DNA from: a virus
DNA length: 10,955 bases
Virus genome (UHGV): UHGV-2150205
Strand: one strand, 5' to 3'
Part shown: positions 899-10,052 of the stretch, piece by piece
Numbering within the stretch: the first letter of the stretch is position 1
Layout: each line of letters opens with the position of its first letter
Made by a program: the position numbers and the translations under genes
Notes under the pieces: generated by a model
Databases searched by the model: none
The model's input: the letters and a program-made list of their open reading frames with translations, nothing else
What the model was told of the DNA's origin: nothing

Positions 899-1144
899 TG
901 TCAGCATTCTGGCTACTTGCTTAGCCAGTTCCGCCAACTCCTCGTCTTCAACACCCCATTCCAGCACAGCCAGAAGCATGGCCATCTTTGGGATAAAGCT
1001 GTCTTTCCATCGCGAAATTTGCGATTCATTAATCCCTAACGCGTCGGCAACCTTTCGCTGACCACGTACAGCAATTCGATTCAGGATGTTAAGCAACGCA
1101 CTCTCGATTCGTAGAGCCTCGTTGCGTTTGTTTGCACGAACCAT
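857..1144 (-). CDS. cII: CII transcriptional activator, 95 aa ([95 protein letters not shown]).
   Basis: Strong similarity to lambda CII as recalled ([19 protein letters not shown]..., [17 protein letters not shown]). The start was moved to the internal ATG at 1144, which has an AAGGA RBS and matches the lambda cII start context; the track ORF begins 29 codons upstream in frame. Confidence 0.9.
861..898 (+). terminator. Rho-independent terminator on the plus strand, overlapping the cII 3' end in antisense (tO-like).
   Basis: gcctcgaagaa / ttcttcggggc stem with a 7-nt loop, then a T-tract at 890-898. Confidence 0.65.
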
Positions 1145-1162
1145 ATGTAAGTATTTCCTTAA
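1122..1162 (+). promoter_or_regulatory. pRE-like CII-activated promoter: TTGC-N6-TTGC (1122-1125 and 1132-1135) embedded in the 5' end of cII on the opposite strand, directed toward cI.
   Basis: The plus strand reads cgTTGCgtttgtTTGCacgaaccatatgtaagtatttcc, which matches the lambda pRE/CII-binding region as I remember it. Confidence 0.6.
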
Positions 1163-1252: not shown

Positions 1253-1447
1253 CTATTTGTTTTTCTTGTTGCTTGGGAAAGGACGAACTTCCTCTCCAAT
1301 CACACTGCCATCAGGCTTTACCGTAACCATAATGTTACGGCCTGCCAGAATGGCCTTGCTGATAGCGCACTGGATTACACCAAAGTCACTGGCTGCTTTA
1401 GCCTGTCCATGGATTTTGGCGTAATCGGCAAGTGTCATTCGAATCAT
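1253..1447 (-). CDS. cro: Cro repressor, 64 aa from the ATG at 1447 ([64 protein letters not shown]).
   Basis: Similar to lambda Cro as recalled (ITLKDYA, SAINKAI, ADGSV, EEVKPFPSNKK). GGAG lies 7 nt upstream of the ATG at 1447; the track ORF starts two codons earlier at a GTG. Confidence 0.85.
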
Positions 1448-1478
1448 ATGCACTCTCCGTTATTAACCATGAACAAAG

Positions 1479-1547
1479 AATACTACAGGTATTCAAAGCA
1501 ATCAATACTCAGGGTATTTTTAGTTTAAGTACCTTAGCTATTAGAAT
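1479..1547. promoter_or_regulatory. OR operator region with divergent pR and pRM. Three AATAC-N5-GTATT-type sites at 1479-1493, 1504-1518 and a weaker one at 1529-1543, about 25 bp apart. pR (minus strand) has -35 TTGATT and -10 TATTCT; pRM has a putative -10 TAGAAT at 1542-1547, which would give a near-leaderless cI mRNA.
   Basis: Repeated palindromic half-sites ATAC/GTAT are visible, and the same family recurs at OL. Promoter hexamers were assigned by eye. Confidence 0.6.
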
Positions 1548-1553
1548 TAAGCT

Positions 1554-2270
1554 ATGGAAAATAAAAAATCACTGACGACAGAACAGCTCGAAGACGCTAA
1601 GCGGCTTAAGGCTTTGTATGAGTCAAAAAAGAAAGAATTGGGAATAACCCAATACTCAATCGCTGATGAACTGGGTATCACCCAAGGAGCGGTAGGGCAT
1701 TATCTTAATGGCAGAAACGCGCTAAACGTTGAGGTCGCATCTGGTTTTGCACGATTGTTGCAAGTCTCAATTGCTGATTTTAGCCAGTCAATTGCTGCCA
1801 AGGTTGCAGAACAGGCAGAAAGCCTTAAGAGCGATGCCAACGTAAGGTATGCAGGGGAATACAGAGCAGGAAAGAGGTATCCGGTGTTAAGCAGTATCCA
1901 GGCTGGCTCGTGGTGTGAAGCATGCGAACCATACACCATTAAAGACATAGATGTTTGGCTTGAGTCTGACGCGCATATTCAAGGTAATGCGTTCTGGCTT
2001 AAAGTAGAAGGTGATTCAATGACGGCACCGGTTGGGTTAAGCATTCCAGAGGGAACATTCGTTCTTTTCGATACCGGAAGGGAGGCGATCAACGGCAGCT
2101 TGGTCATAGCAAAACTTTCTGACTCTAACGAAGCAACATTCAAGAAGCTGATAATCGACGGCGGAAATAAATACCTCAAGGGACTTAATCCTGCATGGCC
2201 TCTCGTGCCAATCAATGGAAACTGCAAGATTATAGGCGTTGCAATTGAGACAAAACTAAGGCTGGTTTGA
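1554..2270 (+). CDS. cI: CI-type prophage repressor, 238 aa, with an N-terminal HTH and a C-terminal S24 (LexA-like) autopeptidase domain.
   Basis: Close to lambda CI at both ends as recalled (KKxLTxEQLEDAxRLKAxYExKKxELG, NALN, FWLxVEGxSMTAP, TFKKLI). A candidate Ala-Gly cleavage site (RYAGEY) and the catalytic Ser (GDSM) and Lys (FKKL) are present. Confidence 0.95.
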   Translation: MENKKSLTTEQLEDAKRLKALYESKKKELGITQYSIADELGITQGAVGHYLNGRNALNVEVASGFARLLQVSIADFSQSIAAKVAEQAESLKSDANVRYAGEYRAGKRYPVLSSIQAGSWCEACEPYTIKDIDVWLESDAHIQGNAFWLKVEGDSMTAPVGLSIPEGTFVLFDTGREAINGSLVIAKLSDSNEATFKKLIIDGGNKYLKGLNPAWPLVPINGNCKIIGVAIETKLRLV

Positions 2271-2287
2271 TCACGCAAGGGGCGCTT

Positions 2288-2656
2288 ATGGTTGGAACCG
2301 CTATAGCAAGCTTTTTTGGGATGTTGGCAATCTCGACAATTTACGGCTTAGCGCATGCTGTTATTGCGAAATCTCTATCAGAAAAAATAAGCCAGGCTTG
2401 GGCGCATAGATCAGCTCGTTTCATGATTCTGGTGATCATAGCAATACAAGGGATATCTGCATTTATCCTCTATGGATCAAGCTTATACCTATTGTATCAA
2501 GGCGCGACATTTACGCCTTACACCAGTGATTACGGAACTCTATACGATGGTAGTGAAGACATCACTGTGGCTTGGATCGTCTTTGGTTTATCTATGGCCG
2601 TGTCTGTTGTAGCAGACATCATTAAGGTAATTCTCGTCTTAACCTTCGCTGACTAA
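2288..2656 (+). CDS. Small integral membrane protein, 122 aa with about three predicted transmembrane helices, immediately downstream of cI and probably co-transcribed with it (rex position). Function unknown.
   Basis: AAGGGG RBS 5 nt before the ATG at 2288; the track ORF starts at an upstream TTG at 2267. Hydrophobic segments are VGTAIASFFGMLAISTIYGLAHAVIA, FMILVIIAIQGISAFILYGSSLYLLY and ITVAWIVFGLSMAVSVVADIIKVILVLTF. Only 18 nt separate the cI stop from this start. Confidence 0.7.
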   Translation: MVGTAIASFFGMLAISTIYGLAHAVIAKSLSEKISQAWAHRSARFMILVIIAIQGISAFILYGSSLYLLYQGATFTPYTSDYGTLYDGSEDITVAWIVFGLSMAVSVVADIIKVILVLTFAD

Positions 2657-2787
2657 CCTATAATCCCGGCAGCAATAGCTATCGGGATCCACTTCACATA
2701 TCCCGCATAAAAAGCACTGAACAAGCAGACACCGAAAAAATAAATATCCTTTGTATTCATTTGCTTATCATTATTTCATCAAAAACA

Positions 2788-2829
2788 AATACCTTGGGTA
2801 TTTACACAATAAAATACCTACAGTATTCT
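2788..2829 (+). promoter_or_regulatory. OL operators and pL. Sites AATACCTTGGGTATT (2788-2802) and AATACCTACAGTATT (2813-2827), with -35 TTTACA (2801-2806) and -10 TATTCT (2824-2829) directed toward N.
   Basis: Same operator family as OR at the same 25-bp spacing. The -10 overlaps an operator, as expected for repressor control. Confidence 0.6.
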
Positions 2830-2874
2830 TTAGCCATCAGCAGGACGCTGGCAGCCAAACGGAACAGATTGGCA

Positions 2875-2916
2875 GGCTCTTTAACATTGATGGGATTGTC
2901 CCGCCGAAATGCGGGA
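2875..2916 (+). promoter_or_regulatory. nutL: boxA GGCTCTTTAACA (2875-2886) and boxB hairpin TCCCGC-CGAAAT-GCGGGA (2899-2916).
   Basis: boxA and boxB are identical in sequence to the nutR copy on the minus strand and lie downstream of pL and upstream of N. Confidence 0.7.
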
Positions 2917-3087
2917 ACCAAAGAGTAGTTGGCTTTGGGGTGTGGTGAAGGGTTCATGGACGGGAATATGTCGCACGTAAAGCGGCGAGGCCTGCGGGAC
3001 TATTCCCGAATTGAAGTCGGACGAAGCGGGTCGAAATGGGTCTCCCACCTACCACACCACCAAAGCTAATCATCTGAGGAACAGAAA

Positions 3088-3207
3088 ATGTTAGACATCA
3101 TGACCAACCCAATTCTCGGTGGTTTAGTTACCACATTCGCCATCTGCTTCGGTTTCACTATCTGGTCTGAAGTAGATGACTGGATGTGGGAACGCAAAAA
3201 CAAATAA
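3088..3207 (+). CDS. Leader micro-ORF, 39 aa (MLDIMTNPILGGLVTTFAICFGFTIWSEVDDWMWERKNK), a predicted single-pass hydrophobic peptide between nutL and N.
   Basis: GAGGA RBS 7-8 nt before the ATG at 3088. The hydrophobic core is ILGGLVTTFAICFGFTIW. It is below the track cutoff and coding status is unproven. Confidence 0.4.
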   Translation: MLDIMTNPILGGLVTTFAICFGFTIWSEVDDWMWERKNK

Positions 3208-3247
3208 TCATCGACACACAAGGATGTGTACCTTCCCGGAGGTCAAC

Positions 3248-3547
3248 ATGACAGTAGTCATTACATATCTGGCTGACGATAACGCCAGAAATCGCCGCAG
3301 AGCACGCAGACAGGCTCAACGTGAACAGGCAATGCAAGAGCAGCGACTGGCGCGAAAAATTGCGCTAAAGCTCTCTGGTTGCGTCAGAGCAGATAAAGCA
3401 GCATCACTCGGAAGCCTTCGCTGCAAGAAGGCAGAAGAAGTTGAGCGTAAACAGAATCGTATTTACTACCGCAAGCCACGCAGTGAAATGGGTGTGACTT
3501 GTGTTGGTCGCCAGAAAATGAAATTAGGCAGCAAACCACTTATTTGA
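3248..3547 (+). CDS. N: N-type transcription antiterminator, 99 aa, with an arginine-rich motif near the N-terminus (NARNRRRARRQAQ) and a lambda N-like C-terminus (YRKPRSEMGVTCVGRQKMKLGSKPLI).
   Basis: GGAGG RBS 6 nt before the ATG at 3248. The N-terminal MTVVITY resembles P22 gp24 and the C-terminus resembles lambda N (SKPGERGITCSGRQKIKGKSIPLI), both from memory. The track ORF (3176 start) extends upstream into the micro-ORF. Confidence 0.85.
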   Translation: MTVVITYLADDNARNRRRARRQAQREQAMQEQRLARKIALKLSGCVRADKAASLGSLRCKKAEEVERKQNRIYYRKPRSEMGVTCVGRQKMKLGSKPLI

Positions 3548-4941: not shown

Positions 4942-5649
4942 ATGGATTTGAATAAATTCGATGAGCCATTCAGCCCTGAAGATATCGAATGGCGAATACA
5001 GCAAAGCGGTAAAACACGCGATGGAAAGGTGTGGGCTATGGTGCTGGCTTATGTCACGAACAGGGCAATCATGAAACGCCTGGACGATGTTTGCGGCAAA
5101 GCAGGATGGCGCAATGAATACCGCGATATTCCCAACAACGGAGGCGTTGAATGCGGCATATCAATCAGGATTGATTCCGAATGGGTAACCAAATGGGATG
5201 CTGCTGAAAACACGCAGGTAGAAGCCGTAAAAGGTGGTCGTTCCGGTGCAATGAAGCGCGCTGCCGTTCAGTGGGGAATCGGTCGGTATCTGTATAACCT
5301 TGAGGAAGGTTTTGCACAAACATCTCTCGATAAAAAGCAGGGATGGCACAGGGCAAAACTCAAGGATGGAACAGGATTTTACTGGCTCCCTCCATCGCTG
5401 CCGGGATGGGCAATCCCAGCATCAGATAACAAACCATCACCAGAAAATACCAACCAGAAATCTCCATCGGTTGACTGCGAACAAATCCTGAAAGACTTCA
5501 GCGATTATGCGTCAACAGAAACTGACAAGAAAAAACTCATCGAGCGTTATCAGCGTGACTGGCAATTAATGGCTGGCAACGAGGAGGCGCAGGCTAAATG
5601 CGTTCAGGTAATGAACATCAGAGTTAACGAACTAAAACAGGCGGCATAA
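4942..5649 (+). CDS. Rad52-family single-strand annealing protein (Sak-like recombinase), 235 aa.
   Basis: Motifs typical of Rad52/Sak proteins (GKAGW...GGVECGISI and KGGRSGAMKRAAVQWGIGRYLY). It occupies the bet position in the pL operon and is followed immediately by ssb. Confidence 0.8.
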   Translation: MDLNKFDEPFSPEDIEWRIQQSGKTRDGKVWAMVLAYVTNRAIMKRLDDVCGKAGWRNEYRDIPNNGGVECGISIRIDSEWVTKWDAAENTQVEAVKGGRSGAMKRAAVQWGIGRYLYNLEEGFAQTSLDKKQGWHRAKLKDGTGFYWLPPSLPGWAIPASDNKPSPENTNQKSPSVDCEQILKDFSDYASTETDKKKLIERYQRDWQLMAGNEEAQAKCVQVMNIRVNELKQAA

Positions 5650-7955: not shown

Positions 7956-8257
7956 CGATCACAAAACAACGTGTAGAAGAAATCATATCCCGTATTGAAA
8001 TGTATGGGCATGGTGCCGGGTATACCGCTGATGAGGTTTATGACCTTGCTGTACTGGCGCTGAATTTATCAAATATCGCAAAACTCAAGCGATACGAGCT
8101 TGATATGGATGGTTGTGACTCGTTCGGTCAGGATTGTGGCGCTGACATGACTGAAGATTCTGATGGCGATTATGTCCTGTTTGATGACGTAGTTAAGTTG
8201 TTTGAGTTTGATACATTCGAAAGCCCAGCAAAGGAGGCAACCAGTGAGCAAGATTGA
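7952..8257 (+). CDS. Hypothetical acidic protein, 101 aa.
   Basis: ATGA overlap with the upstream gene and a purine-rich RBS. Confidence 0.6.
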   Translation: MTITKQRVEEIISRIEMYGHGAGYTADEVYDLAVLALNLSNIAKLKRYELDMDGCDSFGQDCGADMTEDSDGDYVLFDDVVKLFEFDTFESPAKEATSEQD

Positions 8258-9026
8258 TTATCAGGCACTGCGTGAGTTAGCAAAACAGGCAACACAAGGA
8301 GAATGGGTTGCATTTATTTCGACGGGTACTGGTACGTATGCGGTGCATACGCCCGGTGATAAACGATGTGAAGACGTTATCAAATGGACCGGCTTTGATG
8401 GACAGAAAAATGCAGAGAACAACGCTCGTTATATCGCAGCTTTCAACCCAGAAGTAGTGCAGGCGTTGCTGGACGAGCTGGAAGGCAAAGACAAACTGAT
8501 TGCCGAGCTTGGAAAACAATGCGCCGAATGGGAGCGAAAAGCATTAAGTAACTTTGAAGAGTGTGCTGCGATGGCTGAACGTATCGAAGAGATGCAGACA
8601 AAATCTGCACCAGATTCGTTTGGCATCATCGGTGAAAATATTCGAACACAGGATAATCGAATAGCATCAGACCCTATGTTTTGTGTGTATCAAAAGCGCG
8701 AAATCGTTGTTGATGCTGATTATGACTATGACCGGATTGTCTGGGTTGATGAAGATGGCAATGAAGCCAATAAACGCCAAAGTCGTCGTCTCGAACTACT
8801 TCATGAAAACTTTCGGGAGCCACCAGAAAAATGGCGGCGCGTTGCTGTGAAAGATATTGATGAATTCGTGACCTGCTGTTTCACCGAGCAGGGTTGTAAA
8901 GACTACCTGGCAGCCAATGGTCACAATCTTCGCTTGCCTTTTATATATGTAAAAAGCGGTTTCAGAAACGCTGAATATATCGGCATCAGAAACTGGCTTG
9001 CTGGCATTCGCATCAAAGGAGAGTGA
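8244..9026 (+). CDS. Ead/Ea22-like prophage protein, about 260 aa from a GTG start (MSKIDYQALRELAKQATQGEW...).
   Basis: AAGGAGG RBS 6 nt before the GTG at 8244. The N-terminal IDYQALRELAKQATQGEW and NNARYIAAFNPEVVQALLDELE resemble Ea22-like proteins as I recall them. The track ORF starts at an upstream ATG (8202) inside the previous gene. Confidence 0.6.
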   Translation: MSKIDYQALRELAKQATQGEWVAFISTGTGTYAVHTPGDKRCEDVIKWTGFDGQKNAENNARYIAAFNPEVVQALLDELEGKDKLIAELGKQCAEWERKALSNFEECAAMAERIEEMQTKSAPDSFGIIGENIRTQDNRIASDPMFCVYQKREIVVDADYDYDRIVWVDEDGNEANKRQSRRLELLHENFREPPEKWRRVAVKDIDEFVTCCFTEQGCKDYLAANGHNLRLPFIYVKSGFRNAEYIGIRNWLAGIRIKGE

Positions 9027-9027
9027 T

Positions 9028-9237
9028 ATGGCTATCGCTGCAAGTTACACCATGCATCTCTATTGTGACTGCCTCCAGTGTACAGATGGCAAATATAAGT
9101 CGCCAGACTTCGGTGAGTATATAGGTACGTCATGGGCTGGCTGTGCAAAAGAGGCGCGCAAGGATGGCTGGCGAATAAGCAAAGACAAAACACGTACTTT
9201 TGCGCCCGGGCATAAAGTTTTGAGGATTAACACATGA
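9028..9237 (+). CDS. Small Cys-rich hypothetical protein, 69 aa (MAIAASYTMHLYCDCLQCTDGKY...).
   Basis: AGGAG RBS before the ATG at 9028. Contains a CDCLQC motif and a further Cys. Confidence 0.55.
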   Translation: MAIAASYTMHLYCDCLQCTDGKYKSPDFGEYIGTSWAGCAKEARKDGWRISKDKTRTFAPGHKVLRINT

Positions 9238-10052
9238 CCACTATTACCAAAGAACGTATTGAATTGTTCATTAAAAATCCGCTTGAAAACGGGCTTGCCC
9301 GTGGCGAACAAATGGAACTGGCGCAGATTGCACTGGCCTCACTGGCAGCAGAGCCGATGGCGTGGAAATGGCGGCTTACTAGTCTTTTTGACGGTGTGCA
9401 GATTGGCCCGTGGCGGGTGTGTCTTGCGCCACTATCACCCGGCAAGGGGGATGGGTGCAAGACAGAAGCTATTCCACTTTACACCGCCCCGCCAGTACCG
9501 TTAGTACCTGCTGCATTACCTGAGAACGACGATGAGGACGGGCATGACATTGATTATCTTGAGCCATCTGAAGTTTACGCGCTTGGGCGAACATCTGGCT
9601 GGAACGCCTGCCGCGCTGCCATGCTTCATAGTGCCGAACCTGTAAGCCAAACTTACAACTTGCCACAAACGGAGTTTGAACAGGTTGCTGACCTCTACAA
9701 AATGCAATTTGATGACGGTCGCACTTGTGCCTTTCACACTGATGCGCAAAAGGCTGCTCAATGGCTTCAGACGTGCGACGGAAACAGAGTTCAGGAATAC
9801 GTGAAGCTGGAACGGTTGCAGAATGCGCTGTCTGGCAACTATCCGGTAACTCCGGATGGTTGGATAAGCTGTAGTGAGCGAATGCCAGATGATGGTCAGC
9901 ACGTAATTATTTTATGTGATGGCGCATTCGTTCTTTATGCGCAATATCGAGACGGTGAGTTTTTTGATGTTGTCCGCAATGGTGAGGAGTTCTTCGAAAC
10001 GCAGAGCCGCAATGTAACCCACTGGATGCCGCTACCAGAACCGCCGCTCTGA
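9234..10052 (+). CDS. DUF551-domain protein, 272 aa.
   Basis: The C-terminal region (DGWISCSERMPDDGQHVIIL...FVLYAQYRDGEFF...VTHWMPLPEPP) is characteristic of phage DUF551 proteins. ATGA overlap with the upstream gene. Confidence 0.7.
   Translation: MTTITKERIELFIKNPLENGLARGEQMELAQIALASLAAEPMAWKWRLTSLFDGVQIGPWRVCLAPLSPGKGDGCKTEAIPLYTAPPVPLVPAALPENDDEDGHDIDYLEPSEVYALGRTSGWNACRAAMLHSAEPVSQTYNLPQTEFEQVADLYKMQFDDGRTCAFHTDAQKAAQWLQTCDGNRVQEYVKLERLQNALSGNYPVTPDGWISCSERMPDDGQHVIILCDGAFVLYAQYRDGEFFDVVRNGEEFFETQSRNVTHWMPLPEPPL

Follow-up and report, generated by a model that had tools for sequence, protein, structure and literature searches.

What kind of gene follows the cI repressor in this viral genome, and could its product serve the lysogen by keeping other phages out? 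The question is raised by the window, i.e. the whole stretch of 10,955 nucleotides of the virus genome UHGV-2150205 that was analysed here. A first inspection of the letters and open reading frames (the sequence-only reading) had described a small membrane protein encoded just behind the repressor and had considered it as a candidate exclusion or abortive-infection factor. The following elements define the gene and its immediate upstream neighbourhood.

Positions 1554 to 2270, plus strand: cI repressor gene, 238 amino acids, with Pfam HTH_3 and Peptidase_S24 domains and in agreement with the HK620 annotation.
Positions 2277 to 2282, plus strand: Shine-Dalgarno sequence AAGGGG of hkaS, read from the sequence, 5 nt before the ATG.
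Positions 2288 to 2656, plus strand: hkaS, coding for a predicted inner-membrane protein of 122 amino acids with three transmembrane helices (PHROG 6534 match, hydropathy, AlphaFold2 model and dN/dS).

The reading frame comprises 122 codons from the ATG at 2288 to the TAA at 2654-2656. It is separated from the cI stop codon (TGA, 2268-2270) by a gap of 17 nt, so the ATG starts 18 nt after the stop; this spacing and the gene's own ribosome-binding site had both been described correctly in the sequence-only reading. In all lineages examined the gap measures 17-20 nt and includes a ribosome-binding site, which has the form AAGGA at comparable distance from the start in every diverged homologous locus (L005, L009 and L012). 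A TTG codon at 2267 that would extend the frame to 129 amino acids was discarded as the start, and the conserved ATG preferred, since the homologues share an M-(V/I/M)-G start together with the Shine-Dalgarno sequence. All homologous proteins, down to 52% identity, have exactly 122 residues with zero indels. hkaS is a genuine gene and not a chance open reading frame.

It is also not a new gene. In the record of coliphage HK620 (AF335538) it has been annotated since 2001 under the name hkaS with the product "unknown", which the sequence-only reading had missed, and the HK620 protein is known as GenBank AAK28867, RefSeq WP_000233126 and PHROG 6534. The protein of the window is 98.3-99.2% identical to HkaS of HK620 and to the mEpX2 homologue, and it matches PHROG 6534 (unknown function) with E = 2.1e-78 over residues 1-122 of 122. 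The HK620 gene and the open reading frame of the window are thus the same gene, with 98-99% identity, equal length, the same neighbours cro, cI and OL/pL and no difference of substance. Neither a published function nor experimental or transcript data for hkaS were found in the searchable literature. The cI protein of the window is 100% identical to that of mEpX2, and positions 1500-2950 are 98.5-99.3% identical to the immunity regions of mEpX2, HK620, HK630, HK140, HF4s, HZ41, 611R6, phi296/phi367 and two Stx2c phages. This HK620 immunity cassette (cro, OR, cI, hkaS, OL/pL) is common to P22-like, lambda-like and Stx phages, and hkaS is an accessory gene of it.

Near-identity to the HK620/mEpX2 cassette ends at about position 2950, just after nutL, and the N-like open reading frame at 3176-3547 (plus strand) encodes a different N-type antiterminator (PHROG 271, with a weak Pfam N_peptide hit). 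The mosaic junction separates the nut site from the N gene whose product must recognise it. Further downstream in the pL operon two large open reading frames of the Ea22/PHROG 60 type with unknown function are located at 8202-9026 and 9234-10052 (plus strand); their PHROG matches are mosaic and involve multiple families, as is usual in so variable a part of the genome. The coverage of the whole window by any single phage of the collection compared does not exceed 49%, and this limited coverage is typical lambdoid mosaicism.

The known extent of the HkaS family is small. Among 5.8 billion proteins it forms 12 clusters at 90% identity, and a profile search over all 1.84 billion representative proteins yielded two hits, corresponding to two clusters at 50% identity. 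The more distant members share 82% (Hafnia and metagenome contigs), 61% (Salmonella), 55% and 52% identity with the protein of the window. The gene is present in 146 of the 5426 complete E. coli genomes (about 2.7%), at 147 places that are always chromosomal, and genomes with Stx-converting prophages are among them. The cI allele of the window also occupies 147 places in the same 146 of these 5426 genomes, and hkaS and cI are found together every time. In HK620, HK630, phi296 and 611R6 hkaS directly follows an HK620-type cI and precedes OL/pL; this layout recurs in an E. coli prophage, in Salmonella contigs and in contigs from metagenomes and read archives, and every diverged homologue examined has the order cro, cI, hkaS, N. 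Such perfect linkage is expected because the gene sits between cI and OL, and for the same reason it is uninformative on function.

More can be learned from the rates of evolution. Between the window and its 82% homologue dS is 0.69 for hkaS and 0.73 for cI, and from this equality it follows that both genes diverged together. In the same comparison dN/dS amounts to 0.14 for hkaS and 0.03 for cI, and in more distant pairs, where dS is saturated, dN is 0.33-0.42 for hkaS versus 0.07-0.08 for cI. These figures mean that HkaS is under purifying selection, yet evolves 4-5 times faster than the repressor. In the protein database the clusters of intact HkaS hold about 620 member sequences and those of truncated or frameshifted forms are only a handful of singletons. 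That hkaS is a functionless hitchhiker of the immunity region is unlikely, given its dN/dS of 0.14 and its strictly conserved length.

Whether the gene is expressed in a lysogen depends on the regulatory elements that flank it, which are listed here in the order of their positions.

Positions 1121 to 1160, plus strand: pRE, the cII-activated establishment promoter, with coordinates transferred from the HK620 annotation.
Positions 1253 to 1453, minus strand: cro, the divergent partner of cI (Pfam Cro, E = 3.6e-26; HK620 annotation).
Positions 1478 to 1543, no strand assigned: operators OR1-OR3, with coordinates transferred from the HK620 record.
Positions 1542 to 1547, plus strand: the hexamer TAGAAT, resembling a -10 element and a candidate for pRM, about 7 nt before the cI ATG and conserved in four lineages.
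Positions 2663 to 2688, plus strand: stem-loop 7 nt after the hkaS stop, a candidate 3' end, terminator or stabiliser of the cI-hkaS transcript.
Positions 2738 to 2768, plus strand: tIMM ("termination of cI transcript"), transferred from AF335538 and downstream of hkaS.
Positions 2765 to 2836, plus strand: operators OL3-OL2-OL1 and pL (HK620 annotation), the end of the cassette's regulatory region.
Positions 5381 to 5421 of L005, 5383 to 5412 of L009 and 1832 to 1859 of L012: hairpins in the corresponding place behind hkaS, none of them with a U-tract.

The gene of cI is presumed to be the first of an operon served by pRM and pRE. The conserved TAGAAT suggests a leaderless or near-leaderless pRM transcript as in lambda; a simple promoter scan missed this hexamer because its -35 element is poor. 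A transcript starting from the predicted pRE would run through cI and hkaS as well. The terminator scan of the interval between cI and hkaS found no terminator-like site. The short gap, the ribosome-binding site, the lack of a terminator between the genes and the hairpin downstream of them are all compatible with a cI-hkaS operon, and hkaS is most likely co-transcribed with cI from pRM in lysogens, as far as such signals allow a prediction.

The hairpin at 2663-2688 has a folding energy of -13.7 kcal/mol (z = -3.5) and is not a canonical intrinsic terminator because it has no U-tract. Although the lineages are unalignable for about 80-95 nt past the hkaS stop, a hairpin is found there in all four of them, with z between -2.5 and -4.7, and in the Hafnia-type copy a G·U pair of the stem is replaced by an A-U pair. 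This element may act as a 3' stabiliser or form part of the real transcript end; an Rfam search of the region gave no match. The annotated tIMM of HK620 differs from it, being weaker and located 50-80 nt further on, and this A/T-rich stem escaped the terminator scan. It may be necessary to map the real 3' end of the cI transcript afresh. The region of pL is marked by a promoter scan hit at 2801-2829, its OL operators are conserved in all lineages, and the HK620 record also annotates OR1-3, pR, OL1-3, pL and nutL. All lineages have the operator half-site consensus ATAC-N6-GTAT in common and therefore probably have one immunity specificity. On the minus strand a strongly hydrophobic open reading frame of 35 amino acids (MNTKDIYFFGVCLFSAFYAGYVKWIPIAIAAGIIG) is found at 2653-2760, antisense to the hkaS stop and reaching into OL3. 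It is probably no gene, having no clear Shine-Dalgarno sequence and lying in a region that is non-homologous in the Salmonella-type and L009-type loci.

The sequence-only reading had placed the gene in the rex position and had stated that in other temperate phages the site next to cI often carries exclusion or defence cargo. The positional side of this holds: hkaS is part of the immunity module and, like rexAB of lambda, is flanked by cI and OL, with pL next to it, and related phages as well as the literature show unrelated genes in this place. In lambda rexA and rexB are found between cI and OL. Among the nearest other cI lineages, the slot is empty in mEp213, and in phage Huey it contains a gene for a protein of 134 amino acids with a signal-peptide-like N-terminus that is annotated as PagP-like in the record. 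Enterobacter phage ENT1 (locus L018) has two genes there, coding for a Cys-rich protein of 127 amino acids and a membrane-anchored protein of 109 amino acids. The ENT1 cI (2470-3186) has a near-identical C-terminal domain and a different DNA-binding domain, and its cargo shows CxxC...CxxC motifs in the first protein and a coiled coil with C-terminal membrane anchor in the second; this pair represents a further uncharacterised candidate in the slot next to cI. From the literature, Hex of phage 434 is cotranscribed with cI, excludes P22 and shields the repressor from RecA-stimulated cleavage, and deletion of hex leads to more spontaneous induction (PMC3564112). BstA of BTP1 is an abortive-infection protein encoded downstream of cI, and the interval between cI and N has been described as a hotspot of mosaic diversity that includes rexAB and bstA (PMC8585504). 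The contents of the slot across phages indicate that it is optional, variable and enriched for lysogen-expressed functions, several of which are anti-phage. The idea that the site adjacent to the repressor accommodates exclusion cargo is already established.

Not all of this cargo needs to be directed against phages. HkaS could be a lysogenic-conversion moron that alters the membrane physiology of the host independently of phages, possibly by stress or antimicrobial-peptide tolerance, by modulation of a transporter or by immunity to a pore-forming bacteriocin. Bacteriocin immunity proteins are found among the polytopic inner-membrane proteins of about this small size, and other cargo of the slot, like the secreted PagP-like protein of Huey, looks related to the envelope. 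The lysogen E. coli LF82 strongly expresses an uncharacterised prophage transmembrane protein that is listed beside the CI repressor; the LF82 prophage Gally resembles HK620 only in part, and no moron is given for it (PMC9928086). However, no Pfam or NCBIfam family of such a kind matches HkaS, and the family, restricted to a single immunity lineage of phages, has not spread as a general fitness gene might have done. We assign a low probability to this explanation.

What the protein could do is further constrained by its topology. The 122-residue protein with three strongly hydrophobic helices proposed in the sequence-only reading was recovered with coordinates, hydropathy and structure prediction. 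Kyte-Doolittle windows place the hydrophobic stretches near residues 3-27, 44-70 and 93-121, and AlphaFold2, run with an alignment of seven sequences, predicts long helices at 2-29, 41-73 and 89-121, a helix at 31-38 and a short hairpin at 78-86 with a mean pLDDT of 92. Loop 1 (residues 28-44) contains K28, E32, K33, R41 and R44 with a net charge of +3, loop 2 (residues 71-92) contains D81, D87, E90 and D91 with a net charge of -4, and the N-terminus is uncharged. By the positive-inside rule these charges predict a periplasmic N-terminus, a cytoplasmic loop 1, a periplasmic loop 2 and a cytoplasmic C-terminus. A cleavable signal peptide with the motif AHA at residues 22-24 was rejected, since this motif is not conserved; cleavage would also breach the positive-inside rule. 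The protein is predicted to be nearly completely embedded in the membrane with about 17 residues in the cytoplasmic loop.

The invariant residues fall into three clusters. The first, in the cytoplasmic amphipathic stretch, comprises K33, I34, Q36, W38, H40, A43, R44 and F45; the second, at the outer end of TM2, consists of S65, Y67, L68, L69, Y70, T74, F75 and Y78; the third, at the end of TM3, includes D110, K113, I115 to T119 and A121. Within the helices Asp110 and Lys113 of TM3 as well as Gln54 of TM2 are invariant. The most conserved parts, loop residues 31-45 and the C-terminus, are predicted to be cytoplasmic. The most variable regions are the predicted periplasmic loop 76-100, which is the least conserved of all, and parts of TM1 and TM2. 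Such a periplasmic loop is what would be expected if it met changing phage components, and the conserved cytoplasmic parts could equally point to an intracellular partner, for instance the switch machinery or a host protease.

This leads to an explanation in which HkaS would modulate the switch between lysis and lysogeny or the induction of the prophage, its cytoplasmic face binding cI, RecA or a membrane protease of the FtsH type. It has in its favour that the loop and C-terminus just mentioned are the best conserved parts of the protein, that HkaS has diverged together with one cI lineage at equal dS, and that Hex in the same operon position restrains spontaneous induction, as seen from the hex deletion (PMC3564112); in addition, RexA and RexB of lambda have been proposed to aid the transition from lysogenic to lytic growth, which is the subject of a preprint. 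On the other hand, mEp213 works with an empty slot, which means that cI of this related lineage needs no partner. Moreover, an evolutionary rate 4-5 times that of cI would be odd for a tight partner of the repressor, and HkaS, predicted to lie almost wholly in the membrane, has only about 17 cytoplasmic loop residues. A role in switch tuning appears improbable to us.

Homology searches did not connect HkaS with any described mechanism. In Pfam only a sub-threshold similarity to Cation_ATPase_C was obtained (E = 0.013, 15.7 bits versus a cutoff of 27.3), NCBIfam and the PDB sequence search gave no match, and PADLOC-DB 2.0 contained no defence family at E <= 1. Structural relatives that point to a mechanism were not found, and remote homology searches revealed no relative beyond the close family members. 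That no PADLOC, Pfam or NCBIfam model matches HkaS counts against a function in exclusion.

Taking these observations together, we tentatively favour exclusion: by analogy with other cargo and other membrane proteins of phages, HkaS could quite possibly be a lysogen-expressed inner-membrane factor that excludes other (heteroimmune) phages. In lysogens pRM would drive the gene along with cI, as would pRE while lysogeny is being established, and translation would start from the gene's own ribosome-binding site. The protein would form a bundle of three helices in the inner membrane, its conserved basic amphipathic loop facing the cytoplasm and its variable acidic hairpin loop facing the periplasm, and would there protect the lysogen from heteroimmune phages. 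As first choice we suggest superinfection exclusion by a lone protein that would hinder genome entry at the inner membrane, like T4 Imm, P22 SieA or HK97 gp15; the second choice would be a membrane-permeabilising effector of abortive infection. Blocking of entry is preferred over abortive infection because there is no partner gene, because almost no soluble domain is available for sensing an infection, and because the fastest-evolving part of the protein is predicted to face the periplasm. Against this stands that the cassette moves among phages with different virion types, so that HkaS is not matched to one particular DNA-delivery apparatus.

A bolder form of the exclusion proposal, which we consider rather unlikely, would see in HkaS the founder of a new family of stand-alone inner-membrane anti-phage proteins of 122 residues that exclude heteroimmune phages. 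Such a protein would be the fixed passenger of one repressor lineage, its mechanism would be unrelated to Rex, Sie, Imm and the catalogued defences, and its working parts would be the invariant intramembrane pair Asp110/Lys113 and the fast-evolving periplasmic hairpin.

For the present it is reasonable to regard hkaS as an ordinary uncharacterised accessory gene in a recognised hotspot, namely a membrane ORFan of narrow distribution and a reasonable candidate exclusion factor. If the operon is as proposed, the gene would be expressed whenever the prophage is silent. If HkaS does exclude phages, the known cargo of repressor operons would gain a new membrane mechanism based on one gene, with possible effects on the host range in phage therapy and on how Stx phages spread; if it tunes induction instead, it would have a bearing on the stability of Stx prophages. 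In the lambdoid prophage NC-SV a paper from 2026 locates svsR, a proposed anti-phage sRNA, at the end of cI, on its 3' side (PMC12803456). Should the cI of NC-SV be of HK620 type, phenotypes ascribed to the svsR region could involve hkaS.

Among known systems RexB of lambda is closest in position. As is predicted for HkaS, it is a polytopic protein of the inner membrane; its gene, too, lies between cI and OL, and it is expressed with cI in lysogens (PMC8585504). In contrast with the three predicted helices in 122 amino acids of HkaS, RexB has four helices in 144 amino acids and acts with RexA in an abortive infection that involves loss of membrane potential, an example being the exclusion of T4 rII. 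HkaS has no RexA-like partner; the sequence-only reading had noted a lone gene, and in fact no other open reading frame is found between cI and OL in any lineage. Its failure to recognise similarity to RexB or SieB was also justified, with hhalign probabilities of 0.7% for RexB and 1.8% for lambda SieB.

Class I holins such as lambda S105 have three helices and an N-out/C-in topology, and HkaS agrees with them in helix number and in predicted topology. They differ in that these holins are encoded in the lysis cassette and possess a charged cytoplasmic C-terminal tail, whereas hkaS belongs to the immunity region and its product ends one residue after TM3; furthermore, no holin family of Pfam or PHROG matches HkaS. 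Both comparisons bear on the explanation that HkaS forms a holin-like or RexB-like pore and is a lone abortive-infection effector, where a cue from the infection would open the pore and the membrane potential would collapse. Besides the holin-like helices and topology, the invariant Asp110, Lys113 and Gln54 within the membrane and the occupation of the rexB position speak for such a pore. The negligible hhalign probability with RexB, the fourth helix of RexB and its need of RexA in the face of a locus with no partner gene, the missing holin family match and charged tail and the absence of an obvious sensor domain speak against it. This explanation overlaps with exclusion and is kept apart for its distinct prediction; we judge it distinctly improbable.

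Nearer to the favoured function in exclusion are T4 Imm, P22 SieA and HK97 gp15, small membrane proteins of phages or prophages that act alone as is predicted for HkaS. Their genes, unlike hkaS, sit elsewhere in their own genomes, and with Pfam and PHROG no homology of HkaS to families of this type was detectable. Hex of 434 and BstA of BTP1 share with HkaS the location of their genes directly downstream of the repressor gene; both are expressed in lysogens and have been tied to heterologous exclusion or abortive infection (PMC3564112; PMC8585504). Both behave like soluble proteins, which sets them apart from the predicted membrane-embedded HkaS: a soluble fragment of Hex was purified, and BstA is found where phage DNA is replicated.
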